DNA of 64,000 nt from Octopus vulgaris (Eukaryota): NCBI GenBank assembly GCA_951406725.2, contig OX597823.1, positions 69,068,001-69,132,000 of the forward strand. Reading direction: 5' to 3'. The notes under the pieces were generated by a model. That model worked only from the letters and a program-made list of their open reading frames with translations. It was not told the DNA's origin and ran no database searches. This document shows, piece by piece, positions 1,941 to 40,694 of the stretch (the first letter of the stretch is position 1; the number at the start of each line of letters is the position of its first letter). The translations under genes and the position numbers were made by a program.

Positions 1941-3182
1941 TAGTGCACGAGACTAAGATCCTCTACAACTGAGTGGAACTACAGTGGAGAGGGTGGCAAT
2001 TTTATATAAGATGATAAAAGATTACACTATGAAGGAAAGTGTGTGTGTGATGGGGTGTAACAGGCTTCTTGTGGTAGAGAGATATATGGCTGTTCAAATT
2101 ATACAAGAACTGGTGGTATATGGGATTATGGAATTCCACACAATTTCATTGACTGAATTCAGCTCACAATTTATTGGTCTTTTCAAGGCTAGTCTACAAA
2201 ATACTCAATCAAAGTACCACTTATTGGTGTCAAAACAAGGACTACATCTGTGCAAAGTGAACTTGTCAATAACATGGCTATACCTGCATCTATAAACATA
2301 CTTACACATATATGCATACACAAATGTATACATCACACATGCATATATTCATAATGGCATACAATTGTACCAATGCACATATTTTCATTCTTCTATTCAT
2401 AGAAATTCCAGTTCTTAAATTTAAGCATGTTTAAACATACATACAAAAGTACAGTTGTAATTATACCTGTATTTTTAATTGGTTTAAAAATATTAGCTTT
2501 GTAGGAGGGACAGTGTCTATGGCCATTGTGGTGATGGGTAGAGCAATCCAGTTTATAATAATAGTGATGTTCTCTAAGCTTTGTAAACTGTATTCTTTCT
2601 CAGAATTGCTGCTCCCCATCTATGATTGAACCATTTGGTTCACACAGACACACAGACATACAACAGCTCCTTTATAAGAACCAGTTAGCTTAAGACATCA
2701 TCAGGAAGAACCATGTCCAGTTTTGACGTGCCTCCCCACCCCTTTTGGAGGTGTCTTCAGCTCTGGTATTGAGTGCATGTCTTCTTTCTCCTTTCCTCTG
2801 TTATTCTTGAGTTCTTATTATTTCCCATGTTATGTATTAGTGGTTCAGCAAATTTTGCTCAATACATTTCGATCACTAATTCTGTTTTCTTCTACAGTTT
2901 ATGAAGTAGGAAAGTCTCTTTTTGGGAGATATTTCTTTGTTTTATAGATTCTACTTTATAATTTCTATGCTCTGTAACTATAGGCTTAATATGATTCTGT
3001 TTTATTTTTGAGGTTGGTATTTATAATGATAGGCAGGTGCAGATGTAATAGATGTATTACTCAAACGTGTTACTCCTGCTACTATCTATTGGTACCCAGG
3101 CCACATATATGTTTTTAAAGTTGTTGACACCACTGGATTGAATAGTATTGCCCTGGTGTCAAAACCTTAATGATATCTGTTA

Positions 3183-3441
3183 AATATAATAAACGTACCC
3201 TTTTAAAGTCTAGCCAGGCTCATGGGTCCAGTTTCCCAGTTTCTATGGCGTATATGTTTCCCAGCTGGATGGGACGCCAGTCCATCACAGCATTACTCAT
3301 TTTTGCCAGCTGAGTGGACTGGGGCAATGTGAAATGAAGTGTTCTGCTCAAGAACACAATGCGTCGCCTGATCCAGGAATCGAAACCACAATCTTACGAT
3401 CATAGTGCTGACACCCTAACCCCTAAGCCACGTGCCTTTAC
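3183..3441 (-). mobile_element. tRNA-derived SINE (family E) with 14-bp target site duplication
   Basis: Minus strand has an A box (TGGCTTAGGGG), a B box (GGTTTCGATTCC), a CORE-like gtgttcttgagcagaacactt and gatggactggcgtcccatccag. AATGATATCTGTTA is duplicated at 3169-3182 and 3442-3455. A second copy lies at about 60160-60345. Confidence 0.85.
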
Positions 3442-3716
3442 AATGATATCTGTTAGGCAGCTGATAATGGCCGTATATGTTTGATATGTTTGTTGTCTGT
3501 TAATCTTTTATATCTTGGGTTTCATTATTCTGAATTGTTCTTCATTCTAATTAGGATGAACATGTTTTAGGGTTCATGGTTTATGGTTACTACATATATG
3601 ATACTGCATGATTGTCTTCATTAGTAATCTTAGTATACTAGGTTGATACTTAATTAATGGCTTTTAGTTTCCAGAAGTTCTGTTGCATATATATATTTGT
3701 ATGATTGATTGATTAT

Positions 3717-3807
<91 letters not shown>

Positions 3808-3812
3808 TTATG

Positions 3813-4032
3813 TATGAGGTGGTGCTAAATGTTCCTAGCTTTGGATAAAAGAAAATACAGGAGGATCAGTTAATTAGGATTTTACTCAACATATTCCCCT
3901 CTTAGATTTACACACTTATTGCAGCAGTTCCTCCAGTTTTTCCAAGCCCTGTAAAAGAACTTGGGTGGTTGGATCTCCAACCAGGCTCTTTATGATGCTT
4001 TAAAGCCAGCAACTTCTCAGCAGCCTCCCATA
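3813..4032. mobile_element. Mariner-derived MITE
   Basis: Imperfect terminal inverted repeats (gaggtggtgctaaatgttcctagcttt / aaagccagcaacttctcagcagcctc). The internal minus strand encodes the mariner C-terminus CNKCVNLRGEYVE*. Confidence 0.7.
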
Positions 4033-4073
4033 TATTTGTGTGTATATATATCCTTGTATGTGAGTATATTGGC

Positions 4074-4129
<56 letters not shown>

Positions 4130-4284
4130 AAATAATATTTTATAAGCTTAAAGCTTATAAGCGATCACTGTACATTGACTTAGGTAAATGGTCTAATATT
4201 GAGGCATATAACCCGTCGATGGAAAAAAGTAGGGTTTACTGTATGCATGGGACTTGAACCCACATCTCTATGTATATGTATATG

Positions 4285-4360
<76 letters not shown>

Positions 4361-5252
4361 TTCCTGTTTTAACAGCTCACATATAGCTGATGTACAAAAT
4401 CAATTTAAAAATTAAAAGCAACAGAGATGTTAAAATTTAAGTTAGTAATTCTGCTGAATTTCACATTCTTAAAATAACTTTTTTTTCTTCTTTGTAAAGC
4501 AACAAGTTTTCATGTAGATTTGTTGAATTGTTTTCCTAATTAATTAACATGAAATATTTTAATAAATGAAATTTTAGGGAAAAAAACAACAACAACAACA
4601 AAAGCAAAAGCATTTAAACAACTGCTGAGAATAACCTACTTCAAATAGATTTTTCAATTAAGACTTCACGTTGGGATATGGCTGTAAAGTTTTCTAAGTG
4701 AATGAACAATAATGTAATAAATGGATACAGTAAAGAAAGAAATAGAAGGAAAAGAAAATAGATAGAGCAGAAAAATCTTTCAAACTATCAGTGGCATTTT
4801 GAAATGAAGTCTTATCAACAATCATTCGGATGTCAGCACTTCACAGTAGTTGGCACGGTATTATAGTTTGAAGATAATGTAATTTTTACTATTATTATTA
4901 TTATTATTATTATTACTTCTATGTTTTTTATTTTGTTTTGTTTTCTGTAAAGGTTTCTCTGCTCATCTATCAAATGCATCTTTGGAAATGTAAATTGAAT
5001 AAAAACAAAAGAGAAAAGATAAGTAAAAAAAGACCATACAAACATCTTGGAAATCAATTATTTAAAATCTTAAATCCCTCACATCAAGCTGGCAACACAA
5101 GTTCTGCAAGTGCTTAATAGCATCCCTTGCATTTTTGATTGTTCAGATATATTTTCTAATAGGAAGTTCAGATAATCGGTATATAACTCTAGGAAGAATT
5201 TTATTAATAAAAAATATCTCATCTACACAAACACACACGTACATATATATAT

Positions 5253-5520
5253 ACAAGTGTTGGCTGAAAAGTTTAGAGACTGACTATGAAGAAGTATGCT
5301 AGAGCTGCAAAATTTTGTATTGCATTAATTCCAACTGCATTTTCTTTTTCCTAAGTAAACTGACATCTCACAGGTCAAAGAAGACTTCAAAAGTATGTAG
5401 TTGCAACTTCTCTTGAAAATGAACAAAATTTGACATTGTAGTGTTATAAAGTACCTTTTGTAAAAGGGTTCAGCCATCAAGGACATTCAAGCTGACATGG
5501 TTGCAACATGAGAAGAGAAT
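5253..5520 (+). mobile_element. Mariner 5' end relic (TIR-like start plus transposase N-terminus)
   Basis: From ATG about 5419: MNKI*HCSVIKYL...KG...KDIQADMVAT, resembling the mariner N-terminal HTH. It is truncated by the hammerhead element at 5521. Confidence 0.55.
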
Positions 5521-5570
5521 GCATGCTACTCGAAAAAAGGTCAACAGAAATTTCTAAAAAATTCCATTAT

Positions 5571-5628
5571 TACCATATCGGTCCGATTTCAGAGTTAGCT
5601 ACTAAGAGCCCTCTCTTCATCAGTGATA
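5571..5628 (-). ncRNA. Type I hammerhead ribozyme, copy 1
   Basis: Minus strand reads UAUCA-CUGAUGA-AGAG(agggcucuuaguagcuaa)CUCU-GAAA-UCGGACCGA-U-A-UGGUA. The core is intact, with stem I 5 bp, stem II 4 bp, stem III 4 bp and cleavage triplet AUA. Confidence 0.85.
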
Positions 5629-6059
5629 CATGTGGCAAAAGAAATAAATGAGATATTTACTTATACCCATGGAAGAAGCAAATACTAAGTCATGGGCACA
5701 ACTAAGTACCTCAAATAGATCCAAAATAGAAATACTCCAGCCCATTCGAGGCACGTGCGATTTGAACTGAGGCTCTCACAGAGTGAGTTAGTTAGTTCAG
5801 AAGTGAAGGCTTAAATTTATATTTATATCAAATGTGAGGATAAAATTCTTTTCGAAAAAATTTTATCAATGGCCAGCATATTAAAAAATACCTTTAACGG
5901 TTAAATTTATAAACAATTCATAAATGAGGGCAAAGGAAAAAATTTCTAATGCCAAATATGCCAAAAAATTGGACCTATTGTCCATTAACCATATAATTTT
6001 TTCACAATACGCACGCTACTCGAAAAAGGTCGACAGAAATTTCTAAAAAATTCCATTAT

Positions 6060-6117
6060 TACCATATCGGTCCGATTTCAGAGTTAGCTACTAAGAGCCC
6101 TCTCTTCATCAGTGATA
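6060..6117 (-). ncRNA. Type I hammerhead ribozyme, copy 2
   Basis: Identical 58-nt sequence to copy 1, offset by 489 nt. Confidence 0.85.
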
Positions 6118-6779
6118 CATGTGGCAAAAGAAATAAATTTTTCGGCATATTTGGCATTAGAAATTTTTTCCTTTGCCCTCATTTATGAATTGTTTATAAA
6201 TTTAACTGTTAAAGGTATTTTTTAATATGCTGGCCATTGATAAAATTTTTTTCGAGAAAATATTTTTTCGAAAAGAATTTTATCCTCACATTTGATATAT
6301 ATGTATATATGTATATATACACATATCTATTTATCTATCTGTATGTATATGTATATGTATATGTATATATATACATGTACATGTATATGTATATATAAAG
6401 GGTGGAAAGAGTTAATGTCAGTGTCACTCGTAATGTGACCTAACTTGTGATGTTTTGGTGGGACAGAAGACTAAATGTGGCTATGTACTATTGATAACCC
6501 CTCAAAACAGCATCCGTTGATTAGAAAAGAATACTATGGAGAGCATCAAGAAATTTCATCATCAAAGTTTCAAAGTGATAATTCACCATCAGTCCAAACA
6601 TCCTAATAGGTAACTAACCATTCCAGTTACTAAACTCTGGGTGGAATAAAACTTAGAAATTAAGGTAGGAAAAAATAGGCTGATTGATTAGAATATTATC
6701 AACAGGATATACCTGTTCACATTTAAGAAAATCTCCTGCAATAATAACAACTTCAAGGTCTGAAGACAAACATGCAAAT

Positions 6780-7095
6780 GAAAAGCCAGAGATGTGATGT
6801 GCCATATGAGATATATGGAAGGATATTGCCCTAACTGTAATGTAATGTAAAGATAATACCATAACTTATGTTAGAAGAAACAATCAATAGTATATGGCAA
6901 AGATTAGAGAACATTGGCAGGACTACAATGAAAAGAAGAAACCATTAATATTCTACCTGTTAAAGATAAACATGGCAGTTTGATACACAAGATAGAAGCA
7001 TAAGACTTTTATACAAGCCGACATGTAGACTAGTTACAGAAGCGATACATACATTATAGTCAGAAACCTAAGAGTCAACAGAAATTATAAACAAA
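6780..7095 (+). pseudogene. Decayed GIY-YIG endonuclease of a Penelope-like element
   Basis: Frame-broken peptides CKDNTITYV / ETINSIWQR / IREHWQDY ... RLVTEAIHI resemble the C..C...YVGET...R..EH ... R...EA..I pattern of PLE endonucleases. Confidence 0.5.
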
Positions 7096-7468
7096 CAATA
7101 ACTATAGTCTTATCATCACCACATTGCAGATATAAAATCAAAAACACTTCTACCATCAAAACAATCCAACAAATTGACAATAAATACAAAGATGATGGTT
7201 GAAAAAACATCTTGCAATTGATTCCAAACTAATGCGATAAAACAACAAAATTACAATATAAAATAATCCCATGGACTATTATACATACATGTATGTATAT
7301 TTATGCATACAGGCATGCATGTTCACTTACATACATATTTACACTGCTATCCCATGGAAGTATTTATTGCTAGGTATTCACGCATTCATGAGGGTATGTA
7401 TGTTGTAAGATACATACATGGATGTATACATAATGCACACATATACACACACACATACACATATATGC

Positions 7469-7503
<35 letters not shown>

Positions 7504-8036
7504 TCATAAATTACAGCTATTTCAACTTAATTTATAAAAGCAAGTTTTTCCTCAATAATAAAATATCATTAAAATATAATTGTTATTGATATAGGTAAAA
7601 CAACCCCAGTAAATTCTTCAGATATTTAATATCCCTTAGGTGGTTATTTAACGTCTAGCTAAATTGTATATATATATATATATATATACATATACACATA
7701 CACACACACACACAAAATTAGGGATAAAACCACAGATCCATTTGGCATCTGTTTCTAGCATGTTGGTGAGGTGTATCTGCACCATTTGATATAATTATAT
7801 ATACATATATATATATATATGTTGTAGTAGATCGACTCCTTTCTTTGTGCGGATTTCATTGACTTTTATTAGATACTGCGAACAAACAGAAGAAGAAATT
7901 AGACAACTTTAAATGTTCATCTGCTAAAATAACAGTCTTTTTTTAAAAAAAGTCACTACATTACTGACCACCAGTAGATCATATCTTAATATAGTTAATG
8001 TATATTTAAGATTTAAGTTTGCAAATGAGAGACTAA

Positions 8037-8612
8037 CAGAAAGTATGGAAGCTAGCAATGCCAAATCACAGAAAGTATGGAAAACTAGCAATGCCAAAAT
8101 CACAAAGTATGGAAATCTAGCAATGCCAAAATCACAAAGTATGAAAAGCTAGCAATGCCAAAATCACAAAGTATGGAAAGCTAGCAATGCCAAAATCACA
8201 AAGTATGGAAAGCTAGCAGTGCCAAAATCACAAAGTATGGAAAGCTAGCAGTGCCAAAATCACAAAGTATGTAAAGCTAGCAGTGCCAAAATCACAAAGT
8301 ATGTAAAGCTAGCAGTGCCAAAATCACAAAGTATGGAAAGCTAGCAGTGCCAAAATCACAGAAAGTATGGAAAGCTAGCAATGCCAAAATCACAAAGTAT
8401 GGAAAGCTAGCAATGCCAAAATCACAAAGTATGGAAAGCTAGCAATGCCAAAATCACAAAGTATGGAAAGCTAGCAGTGCCAAAATCACAAAGTATGTAA
8501 AGCTAGCAGTGCCAAAATCACAAAGTATGGAAAGCTAGCAGTGCCAAAATCACAAAGTATGGAATGCTAGCAATGCCAAAATCACAAAGTATGGAAAGCT
8601 AGCAATGCCAAA
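8037..8612. repeat. 32-bp minisatellite, about 18 units
   Basis: Head-to-tail unit AAAGTATGGAAAGCTAGCA(A/G)TGCCAAAATCAC with no spacers. Confidence 0.97.
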
Positions 8613-8671
8613 GATTTATGTGGATGCTTATGGTATTTGATATGGATAGAATAGGCCACACAAATACAACT

Positions 8672-8884
8672 TTAACTCTTGAACATTCAGATTTCTTTGT
8701 CAAATGTAAATCTTATTTATTCACATTGTTTTGAATTAATCATACATTTTCTCATAGCTTCACAATTTCTATGATGTGGTTGTTTATTTGTAGGGTAGGT
8801 GTGAGACATTGGATCTGCTCAGTTTTAACATAAAACCAGGAGAATATCTGGATCAGAAATGGCTGGATTAAATGCTAGAGTGAA
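8672..8884 (-). mobile_element. Degenerate TTAA-type MITE (same family as 26481-27141)
   Basis: Internal ttatttattcacattgttttgaattaatca is the reverse complement of part of the 26481-27141 element. Decayed TIRs ttaactcttgaacatt / aatgctagagtgaa. Confidence 0.65.
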
Positions 8885-9681
8885 GCCCACTTTCACTATC
8901 AAAGCAGGGATTAGCCTAGGGGTCCTATGACTAAATGTTTTAGGGGACTATCTATCTTTTATCCTTTTCTTGTTTCAGTCATTGGACTGTGGTCATTCTG
9001 GGGCTCTCTCTTTAAGGGTTTATTACATATACATTAGCAATAAGTAGATATCAGTTATTAGTGGTCAGTTACATAGTGACCTGGTAAACTTGAAATGCCA
9101 GTAGTGATGGTCATTATAATAGAGGACAGCTGATCTGTTGATGTCAGTGTTGGATGGTCAAGAAATATAATGACCAGCTGAATGGTAAAAATACAATTTT
9201 CATTCTGATATTTTGTTCATTATATTGTCTATTTTGCAGTGGTAGTAAAGGTCAGACGAATAAATATTACTAAAGCATTGCTTTACAGTCAGATGCCCGT
9301 CCTGTCATTAGAGATACTTACTTCACATGCTTGTAACTGAAACATTTTTCTTTCTTTTTCCATCTCTTCTGCAATCTGCAACAAAGAAAAAATGGAATTC
9401 TTTTGATTTTCATTTATGCATTACACTTTACCATTTCTCACTCTCTTTCTCCGTGTGCTCAATTACACACACACACACACAAAACATGTATATATGTATG
9501 AATGGATGAATGGATGGATGAATGGATGAATGAGTGAAAGAATGAATAAAATGACAATTGCCTTAGTGTTTAACATGTCTGCATAATTTATGGTGTGTCT
9601 GGATTATGATTCCAGTAGGCACTGAAGAACATTTTTGTCCAACCCATGCAAGCATGGAACATGATTATATACATACATGTG

Positions 9682-17896: not shown

Positions 17897-18828
17897 GTTA
17901 GTTAGTTAGTTAGTTAATTTGGCTCAAAAGCAAATAGCAAGGCCATGTAGGGGAACATGGAGTTAAGTACAGGGTGGTGTTCATGTAAAGAGTTCAGGCC
18001 ACTTGAGGTCCAGGGAGGCTTTGAACAAAGCGGTCGTCGGCATCTTCACCATCTCGTCTGGCAGCTTGTTCCATGGATCTGCAACCCAGACGGAGAAAGC
18101 TCTTCTCCTTCGATTGAGATGAAATCGTCGCAGGTAGAGCTTTTCGGAATGACCCCGCATCCGACGCTCCGGAGCAGGAGTGAAGAACAGCTCTTTCGAG
18201 AGGTTACACTTCCCGCTTATGATGTTGTGGGTGAGAATGAGATCACCACGGCGGCGGCGTTTTTCAAGAGAATAAAGGTCGAGCGTCCTCAGCCTTTCTT
18301 CGTAGGACAAATTTTTGAGACCATGAACCATGCGGGTAGCCAGCCTCTGGACTCTTTCGAGATGCTGTATGTCTTTGAGGAGATAAGGAGAAGAGGCTTG
18401 AATCCCATACTCCAATATGGGTCTCACCAGCATGACATAGAGTGGCAGGAATATGGCTGCTGTGAGCATTCCGAATGACCGTCGAATCAAAAACAGAATT
18501 CCGCACGCTTTGTTGGCAGCATGGACGCACTGGGCCGAAGGCGAAAAGGAGGAATCCACCAAGATACCCAGGTCCTTTACCTGATCGGTCCTCTCCAGCA
18601 GCAGACGACCCGGCTCGAAATCAAGTTGAGTTGCAGGAGTAGAGCCGACAGGCAGATGACAGCACTTTGACACGTTCAGACATAGGTCCCAATCGTTAGA
18701 CCACTTCCAAATTTGGTGGAGGCATCGACGAAGATCCTCTATACTACCGCGAGGAGCGACCAGTTTGATATCGTCGGCAAATAGAAGGGTGTGTTGCGTG
18801 AGGTCGTCGGGCAAGTCATTTATGACAA
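17897..18828 (-). mobile_element. 5'-truncated CR1-type LINE inserted in (GT)n
   Basis: RT-coding fragment, short 3' UTR and (TAAC)n tail (gttagttag at 17897-17917), with (GT)n on both sides. Confidence 0.92.
17981..18826 (-). CDS. Partial reverse transcriptase ORF2 (CR1 clade), uninterrupted
   Basis: INDLP...LLFADDIKL, LERVQRLATRMV, LSYEERL, RRRRGDLI, RGHSEKL and WNKLP motifs. About 280 codons without a stop; the ORF-track start is microsatellite read-through. Confidence 0.9.
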   Translation of the reverse strand, partial: VINDLPDDLTQHTLLFADDIKLVAPRGSIEDLRRCLHQIWKWSNDWDLCLNVSKCCHLPVGSTPATQLDFEPGRLLLERTDQVKDLGILVDSSFSPSAQCVHAANKACGILFLIRRSFGMLTAAIFLPLYVMLVRPILEYGIQASSPYLLKDIQHLERVQRLATRMVHGLKNLSYEERLRTLDLYSLEKRRRRGDLILTHNIISGKCNLSKELFFTPAPERRMRGHSEKLYLRRFHLNRRRRAFSVWVADPWNKLPDEMVKMPTTALFKASLDLKWPELFT

Positions 18829-19759
18829 GTGTGTGTGTGTGTCTGTGTATATGTATATATGTAATACAAACACACATACACATATATATTTATATGTATG
18901 TATGTTGAACTGAATGTTTGAATCTATATTTACTCTTTTATTTAGAATTATTCATATTTCTTTATTAATGCTTTATATTCAGTTTGCAACAATGGCATTC
19001 CTGACTTCATTAGTCCATTAATAGTTCAAGCCCTCTGTCTCTTCAACTGAACAGAATGAGAATAATATTGAGCTGCTGTTGTTTACACACTTTACAGTTC
19101 ATTACAAAGGATCATGGGCATAGTGTTTTAACTAATAAAGTCAAAAGCACCAGATTTGAAATTATTCAATGTCTATGTTTTAGTAGAATGTCACAGCATA
19201 TTTCATGTTTGCTGTATCTATGTTAATTTGCTAGGAATAAAGCTTTCATAGTTACTCTTCTCATTTTGAGACAGTTTTATATAAAACGGTAGGCTGTCAG
19301 TACATGAAATTTTGCATCGCATTATAATATACATAAAATAAAATTCGATAGATAAGCTTTAGTTTCAAACATAAAATATAGTATAGTAATAAATTCAAAT
19401 TTACAACAAACGATCCAAGCAGTTTTTATTTTCCAGTAGTAAAGTAACAAAATTAGAACTACACAGCTTGTAGTCCTTGTATGCTGAATGGTTATGCTCT
19501 AGAAGAACTTATTTATAAAGTAATTTCTTCATCCGTTAATTACGACTGACTTGAAACTTGTTATATAAAATATGCTGCAGTTATAAAAATTTTATTGCTC
19601 TACTTGTACTAACAGAACAAATTGGAGATACAAGTAATAGTCACTTGTTGATTCTGGATTAGTCAACTGATACTAGTTTTCTTTTTATATATATGTATAT
19701 ATATATTACAAATGGTAATTTCCATTACTATCATCCCAAATGGAAATTGTAGTTAAGAA

Positions 19760-38712: not shown

Positions 38713-40694
38713 TATTGTATAAAATTTTTAGCGAGAACAGCTCATTGTTCAATACATGCTGGAAATGTTTGAACCTAGAAAAGGCAGAGGAGGACTATAT
38801 CACATATGCTGGTAGAGTTAACAGAGAATGTGAATAGTTCAAACTGAGCAAATTAATGCCAGATATGTTCAACTGTCTGATATTTTCTCAGGAACTAACT
38901 GCAGAAAAAGACGCTGAAGTAAGAACAAAAATTTTCGCTAGGATGGAACAAAACCAAATTGTAAACTTAAACAAGTGTCAGAAGAGTGTGAAAGAATAGT
39001 AAATTTATGATGCGACACAGAGAAAATTGAACATAAAGATTGCTCTTAAGTGAAACAAGTGCGAAATAGGCAGAGTAAAAATCAAGTGCGTACTAAAATA
39101 TAGCACAAACAGAACAAAAATCAGGAAACAAACCTTTGTTTTGCATGTGGAGGTCTACACTTGTGAAAAACCGCCCATTTAAGAAAAACTGCCCCTTTTT
39201 CCGTTTTGGAAAAATTGGACACGTAAAAGCCCACTGTAAAACCAAGATGATAAAGCGTTGGAACAAAGATAAAAGAATAAACAAGATATCGTTAAAAAAA
39301 AATGGAAATATAACAAAGAGGAAATTCATAAATGTGAAAACTGATAATATAAGAGTAAAAATGCAATTAGATACTGGAAGTGAATGAAGAAACTTGGAAG
39401 TATATCGCTAAGTCAAAATTAAGTAAATCCACAAATGTAGCACATGGTGTTATGGGTAAAATATTGTATTATGTAAATGAATATGTGTGTAATGTGACAT
39501 TTCATGACCAAATGAAAACGGCAAACGTATATGTGTTAAAAAATACAGTTAATCTGTTCATCGTGGAGTGGATGGAACTATTTGAATTGTGGAATAAGCT
39601 CATAAGTGTTTTGTGTGGGAATATAGTCGGTTCAGTCGAAGGTTCGAATGTGGTTGAGCGATTGAATCGAAAAATAAAACATTCATTTCTCGGATGAACT
39701 GGGCTGCTGCACAAAACGAAGGCAAAAGTTGCAGTAAAACGAAGTGCAATACCTGTATTTAGACCAAAACGGAATGTACCATTTGTGGCATTAGAACAGG
39801 TAAATAAGGAACTTATAAGACTTGAGAGCCTAGGATTAATTGAGAAGTCAGACCACTCAGATTGGGCAGCACCTAGTCTATGTAAAAAGAATAATAATAC
39901 ATTAAGAGTTTGTGCAGATTTTTTAACGAGTTTAAATGATTGCTTAAGCTCACATAACTATCCCTTGCTGTGTCCTGAGGAAGTGTTTGCAAAATTGTAT
40001 GGAGGGAAATTCTTCTCAAAATTAGACCTCTCGGAAGCATATTTACAAATCCAAGTAGAAGAAGAATGTTCACACTTATCAGCCATTAATACACACTGTG
40101 GCTCATTTACATACATATATTTCAATACATATAGGGACAGAGAGCAAAGATACACACTTTTGTAGAGACTGGCTACTTGATGGATGTAAATTTTTTAATA
40201 ATGAAGTATTTTATTTTGTGACATTGTTTTTGAAAACTAAGAAGTTATATTTAACATAAATGACAGGCATCATTTTTCTGCTGAGATAGTCTTTACAAAA
40301 GGTTAAGACCCAAGAGAAATAACAAAGGTTAAGACCCAAAAGGAATAAACAAAAATTAAGTCCCCAGAGGAATAATAATGAGCTCCCATAAGTGCGTAAG
40401 TAAATACCAAAACTGCAAACTTATGGGAAAAAGATGAGATGAAATTTCTAAATAACGAATGTATCAAACTATTTTATGTTTTCATATTTGTTAACATCTG
40501 CAGCTGGAGCAAGCCAACCAAGCACCAAGGAAGACAGATACAGTGCACAAATTGTGGAAGCTCTTCCTAGCAATTTTAAACTCACTGTAAACAATTGGAT
40601 ATATATGCTGATCAGATGGTCATAGTGATCAGCTAAAAGTACCACAGAACAAGGACTTCGCCCAATCACACCCTTGGGCTCTTGTATTGATAGT

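Follow-up and report, generated by a model that had tools for sequence, protein, structure and literature searches.

A twin-hammerhead locus in the Octopus vulgaris genome: probably a truncated copy of an ORF-less retrozyme inserted into TA microsatellites

Two identical 58-nt sequences, each predicted to fold as a hammerhead ribozyme, lie close together on the minus strand of Octopus vulgaris contig OX597823.1, within a 64,000-nt stretch (hereafter the window). The pair raises the question of what kind of element it belongs to and how that element reached its present site. The pair probably belongs to a truncated copy of an ORF-less hammerhead retrozyme of ~500 nt that is dispersed in the genome and was likely put into TA microsatellites by the reverse transcriptase (RT)-endonuclease of a Penelope-like element (PLE) acting in trans.

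The window copy and its ribozymes

A first-pass annotation of the window had described twin minus-strand hammerheads with an intact core, three stems and an AUA cleavage triplet, and the sequence bears this out, as it does the 489-nt distance between the predicted cuts (Table 1). Both ribozymes read CUGAUGA...GAAA, with AUCG/CGAU as stem III. They are embedded, as also annotated, in direct repeats of about 128 bp (5521-5649 and 6011-6138), which differ from each other by two substitutions and one indel and are identical in their ribozyme parts. The predicted fold of the 489-nt monomer has an energy of -125.8 kcal/mol (z -5.1), and none of 100 shuffled sequences was equally stable. A predicted long-range helix (5745-5763 with 6004-6023) closes the ribozyme domain; by eye it seems to be kept with altered letters in a sister subfamily, and several arm junctions use the homology of this segment.

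Table 1. Features of the window copy and its immediate surroundings (window coordinates)
Feature	Position	Strand	Remarks
Type I hammerhead 1	6060..6117	-	Predicted cut 3' of 6065; covariation backs the stems
Type I hammerhead 2, same sequence as hammerhead 1	5571..5628	-	Predicted cut 3' of 5576
Predicted 489-nt monomer between cut sites	5576..6064	-	Strongly self-paired in predicted fold
Full unit 1, main arm	5650..6138	-	~19-nt deletion and 6-nt duplication relative to the ~503-nt family unit
Partial unit 2, main arm	5521..5649	-	Cut at unit position 129; without site-A end and TA repeat
Second, inverted arm	6136..6294	+	Unit ~170-330, ending at site B; 3-nt overlap with main arm
TA-rich microsatellite target adjoining the site-B end	6295..6398	.	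Pattern recurs in the family
Site A within unit 1	5900..5927	-	Predicted hairpin, then TATAAATTTAA; 3' ends of copies
Site B within unit 1	5810..5839	-	Followed by the same TATAAATTTAA motif; 3' ends of copies
Putative Pol II promoter stretch	5765..5805	-	Family CACTTCCG, altered in the window copy; TCAGTT presumably initiator-like
Old transposon relic, presumably mariner-like, broken off at the element's left end	5243..5522	+	Genome search; transposase-like translation

In all, the window copy amounts to 1.26 units and a 160-nt arm. An inverted copy of an internal segment, formerly taken for the 5' end of the element, is indeed present, but it represents a separate arm of the insertion, whose 3' end abuts the TA repeat. 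This arm matches ~5829-5970 and still has ~17-20 nt that are deleted from unit 1. On the other side, the main arm stops short against the transposon relic, which we take to be mariner-like (2027 genomic candidates, 74-79% identity) and which does not resume to the right of the element in an empty-site check. Partial unit 2 has thus likely lost its site-A end and TA repeat through a later deletion. The stretch that we take to be Pol II promoter-like, and whose promoter function is putative, sits between the two ribozymes and is mutated, so that a monomer from this copy would need read-through from outside. Since there is no promoter upstream of the first ribozyme and the left end is lost, the window copy is probably a dead product.

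Several other observations were made in passing. At 5655-5672 (minus strand), upstream of the ribozyme, the family consensus has an ATG followed by a GTAAGT donor-like site, an arrangement that resembles an autonomous pLTR and is mutated in the window copy. A tRNA-type B box-like motif, GTTCAAATC, was also noticed. No evident gene was seen by eye among the 41 stop-to-stop frames of at least 110 aa in the 64-kb window; fragments resembling a LINE reverse transcriptase (17981-18889) and an LTR-retrotransposon pol gene (39698-40165) were picked out in the same way.

The predicted structure is that of a type I hammerhead, with a CUGANGA/GAAA core, an NUH triplet and three stems, of which stem I is open. 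Stem I has 5 bp and a distal 3 bp, stem II has 4+4 bp around a 2x2 loop (AGAG/CUCU, an AG/AA loop, GGCU/AGCU and a 6-nt loop) and stem III has 4 bp. Covariation was assessed in 57 aligned ribozymes (a random subset of 104 distinct core-filtered ribozymes, plus the window copy), a set limited to intact cores and in part anchored to stem III. Of all cells, 97.1% are paired, compared with 26-39% in slid controls, and both partners have changed in 9 of the 20 pairs. In this alignment the compensatory changes support all of the predicted stems, and they trace to about three subfamilies and hence to few independent events. Core positions are less variable than background (9/770 vs 2.4%), and G8 varies in 2.6%, compared with 9.1% at other CpG sites. 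The CUGAUGA core holds for the window but not for the family, which mostly reads CUGACGA (111/152 ribozymes); both ribozymes of the window locus carry U7 and an A in loop III as private changes. Two earlier proposals concerning stem II did not survive comparison with other copies: the last pair of a bulged UUAG/CUAA extension is broken in 78 of 152 ribozymes, and in the AGAG/CUCU hairpin suggested as a switch, 27 of 152 have G.G at one pair, the other pairs drifting only to G.U.

A search with the Rfam hammerhead models, which the first-pass annotation had proposed, gave no match at E<=5 in window positions 3000-9000; few natural variants are matched by these models. Since stem III is nearly palindromic, with a predicted self-pairing energy of -12.5 kcal/mol, dimers are possible. 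The predicted minimum-energy fold of the ribozyme (-19.6 vs -11.6 kcal/mol for the hammerhead fold, in a secondary-structure model with tertiary contacts outside it) buries the core by pairing it with stem III. Hammerhead pairs on opposite strands, 100-700 bp apart, have been described for PLEs (PMC4209133).

A dispersed family with a Penelope-type insertion footprint

The copy-number check proposed for the element revealed a dispersed family. A ribozyme 24-mer has 812 exact matches in the 2.8-Gb genome (227 contigs), and its reversed control has none; the match is therefore not due to chance. The count is a minimum and does not include a sister subfamily of ~75% identity. A search with the whole element returned 2976 candidates, 40 of which were scored. 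The family unit is ~503 nt long with 34% GC and, as the first-pass annotation had stated for the element, contains no ORF, its longest stop-free run being 54 codons; the RT and GIY-YIG ORF of an autonomous PLE is absent from it. Thirty near-full units differ from the consensus by 0.8-7.0% (mean 3.0%). The sister subfamily (loci L169-L198), the best 40 matches of which are 95-100% identical to the query, has the core CUGAAGA and identical A and B end sites. A dispersed, multi-copy, low-GC repeat without coding capacity and with a self-paired monomer corresponds in sequence to a non-LTR retrozyme, as do tandem units that each carry a type I hammerhead (the window twin, and locus L007 with more than three units). 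The twin same-strand arrangement is a minority form, seen at about 6-7 of 85 loci, namely 3 real cases of two same-strand ribozymes in one arm in the 81-locus sample described below and 3-4 among four loci left out of it. Sixteen sequencing runs, guessed to be RNA, contain 20-33% of the unit's words, and contigs of four of them cover the unit; contigs cannot reveal ends, strand or circles, and this uncontrolled comparison speaks neither for nor against expression.

Insertion sites were studied at the first 100 listed 24-mer matches (contig C1 and part of C2), which gave 81 loci after merging of overlaps; the four loci from the whole-element search (L002, L005, L014 and L019) were left out of these counts. 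Arms end at unit site A (~226) or site B (~330) in 129 of 148 cases, and a microsatellite adjoins 121 of these 129 canonical ends, the copies ending against TA repeats. Head-to-head two-arm insertions make up 55 of the 81 loci. Where both ends are canonical (40 loci), 37 are A+B, 2 are A+A and 1 is B+B, the last (L135) being two A+B pairs merged by the script; the excess of A+B has a binomial p of 2e-8 against independent choice of ends. A+B was likewise found, by eye, in 8 of 10 cases in the sister subfamily. The motif TATAAATTTAA directly follows both sites, and both lie at predicted hairpins, so the TA end of the target may anneal there. The longest arm measures 927 nt, and multimers occur at L007 and L026.

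Partial tandems, an inverted arm, a tail and a microsatellite target together form the footprint of a PLE insertion. The ends of the copies are fixed and paired, which suggests copying of a single RNA, possibly a circle, from the two strands of a cut TA repeat, likely by a Penelope-type enzyme; sites A and B would then be the starts of reverse transcription. For PLEs, a tail at one end only has been noted (PMC8557442), and two internal RT starts have been shown in vitro, with no strand difference in start site as described (PMC11167929).

Candidate enzymes are encoded in the same genome, where a GIY-YIG search gave 6136 candidates, of which 150 were scored. One PLE family has intact 781-codon RT and GIY-YIG frames, an upstream ORF, two TA-abutting ends and a CxxxxCxxC linker, which is Neptune-type according to PMC8557442. 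A second PLE family likewise ends at TA repeats. The pLTRs of these two families have no homology to the ~503-nt unit, and no PLE with a pLTR homologous to the unit was found among 38 GIY-YIG loci (two of ten refetched loci repeat earlier ones). At one of 136 distinct family loci (L146:2922-2924), an arm of the retrozyme and a 5'-truncated arm of the second PLE family are joined 5' to 5' without a spacer, and both end at TA repeats; this is possibly a single insertion from two RNAs.

Hammerhead-like motifs were also seen in the PLEs. At L061:5217-5672 and related loci, an active two-ORF Neptune-type PLE family carries one with the core UUGAUAA, in which U3:A8 replaces C3:G8, and with a palindromic ACAUGU stem III; the UUGAUAA core is common to several related PLE families. 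The second PLE family has a different motif (L146:830-860, minus strand) with the core CUGUNGA and U at position 6, which is conserved across its copies, N7 varying.

The RNA template and rival explanations

The mechanism that we favour would begin with a transcript spanning two ribozymes. The monomer released from it by cleavage would probably be closed into a circle by a ligase of the host. Reverse transcription of this RNA would then be primed by the two nicked strands of the target, from A by one strand and from B by the other. The cDNAs would extend back through the ribozyme, in some cases going round more than once, and short homologies would serve to join them 5' to 5'. The window copy would be such a two-arm product that later lost its left end.

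Shared mutations bear on the template. Non-consensus alleles are shared at 9.8/kb between tandem repeats in one arm and at 11.4/kb between inverted arms, compared with 1.4/kb between different loci; derived alleles are thus shared seven to eight times as often between repeats of one locus as between those of different loci. In a count covering 107 loci, private non-CpG alleles common to tandem overlaps numbered 12 (7/45 loci) and those common to inverted arms 9 (9/65 loci), each against 0.4 expected. This points to the copying of a locus's repeats from one template. A circle accounts for the shared alleles and also for arrays growing again, and a linear master that is young and homogeneous would do the same. 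Circular templates have been proposed (PMC4209133; PMC7229834), and retrozyme circles have been shown for coral, mussel and axolotl (PMC7229834). Loci L003 and L006, which have two ribozyme subfamilies inside one arm, are not explained by a single circle and argue against a pure circle model. Also counting against such a model, no excess of recombination across the cut site was seen, discordance being 6-9% from inside the ribozyme vs 3-24% elsewhere. Four of the 129 arms have 5' ends at unit 66-85, which is uninformative since the sampling anchor spans the cut site. A-to-I editing fixed in the copies was considered and rejected, A>G (11) and T>C (12) showing no bias among 79 shared rare alleles.

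The same family and enzyme might instead use uncut linear multimers from a few young tandem masters, the ribozyme serving another step and no circle being formed. The multimer loci and the mixed-subfamily arms are in keeping with this, and so are 5' ends at the putative initiator, which suggest uncut linear templates (5 of 129 lie within 5 nt of unit 382-387, a weak, post hoc cluster where about 1 was expected). For a PLE in vitro, unprocessed RNA is the main substrate (PMC11167929). The favoured mechanism is also weakened by the findings of that study that insertion in vitro does not need cleavage and that no RNA-seq ends lie at the cut site, by the report that 8 of 9 predicted Xenopus dimers failed to cleave (10.64898/2026.07.22.740005), and by the predicted fold that buries the core. 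Against the linear template, no arm among the 129 of the anchored sample has room for two promoters, and tandem repeats resemble one another as closely as do the arms of a single insertion. Moreover, an array would lose length with every round of linear copying, whereas copies of more than one unit persist in about three subfamilies that are up to 25% apart. We regard a purely linear template as unlikely.

Chances are slimmer that the copies are mere 5'-truncated pLTR ends of an ordinary autonomous PLE outside the sample. Their architecture matches that of PLE insertions (PMC8557442; PMC4209133), and only 150 of the 6136 GIY-YIG candidates were scored; yet every arm that reaches past the promoter (29/129) enters the previous unit and not an ORF. 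The linkage to PLE ORFs raised in the first-pass annotation was not found either, no arm in 136 loci running in sense into PLE coding sequence (in L001-L030 the comparison was at the DNA level, against two PLE families). Least probable of all, and very much so, is a local origin of the twin by DNA-level tandem duplication or gene conversion, with the inverted arm added by a separate rearrangement. Duplication would likewise yield shared private mutations, but the inverted arm ends exactly at site B against the TA repeat, and the two-arm form recurs at dozens of loci. Within the favoured reading, insertion by a PLE enzyme acting in trans, a more specific arrangement may tentatively be proposed, although we doubt it as a whole. 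A dimer of the enzyme would sit on one circular 500-nt RNA at the two duplicated TATAAATTTAA hairpins, one TA strand would prime each active site, and every insertion would be A+B; the PLE encoding the enzyme would share no pLTR with the unit and could join passenger and PLE RNA, as at L146.

Relation to described elements and significance

The initial suggestion that this is a PLE-type repeat with hammerheads, non-autonomous and a retrozyme in kind, is supported. Animal non-LTR retrozymes, as described in PMC7229834, similarly have a type I hammerhead per unit in a low-GC, ORF-less, self-paired repeat, occur as full or partial tandems and co-occur with PLEs. Their units are 150-450 bp, whereas that of the octopus is ~500 nt. 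The octopus family, described here from its genomic sequence, further differs in its mostly dispersed copies of less than one to 1.5 units, its two inverted arms, its fixed ends in TA repeats and its longer stems II and III. The retrozymes described as non-autonomous PLE derivatives by Li, Clavereau and Pollet (2026; 10.64898/2026.07.22.740005) span 51-972 bp, a range that includes the octopus unit, and also form monomers, dimers and multimers in genomes with PLEs; in Xenopus they are tied to PLEs by pLTR homology, whereas the octopus family is tied by its insertion footprint. The 35 genomes of that study, as described, include no mollusc.

PLE insertions share partial tandems, an inverted 5'-truncated arm, a microsatellite bias and an optional 3' tail at one end (Craig, 2021, PMC8557442; Cervera, 2014, PMC4209133), and PLEs have also been described with two internal RT starts and with hammerheads of long helix II, short helix I and palindromic helix III (PMC4209133; PMC11167929). 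In contrast to PLEs, the octopus unit has no ORF, and its tail is ~104 nt compared with 30-40 nt (PMC8557442; PMC4209133; PMC11167929). The coupling of A and B ends is tight in the octopus, whereas none was seen in the in vitro work as reported (Frangieh, 2024, PMC11167929). The plant LTR retrozyme, with its type III hammerhead, LTRs, PBS/PPT and 4-bp TSD, differs from the octopus element in that the latter has type I topology and ends that abut TA repeats.

No account of the family, or of how often A pairs with B, was found in the open literature that was searched; one may exist in Repbase, Dfam, subscription journals or bioRxiv supplements, which lay outside this search. The family is thus new as far as searched, while its kind, the animal non-LTR retrozyme, is already published, so that the window locus itself is ordinary for the genome. 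What the family adds is numbers on two open points of PLE biology, namely whether copies longer than a unit derive from a circular template and what confines the tail to one end. With a 500-nt substrate, two mapped starts and intact candidate enzymes in the genome, both points are testable in the existing in vitro system.
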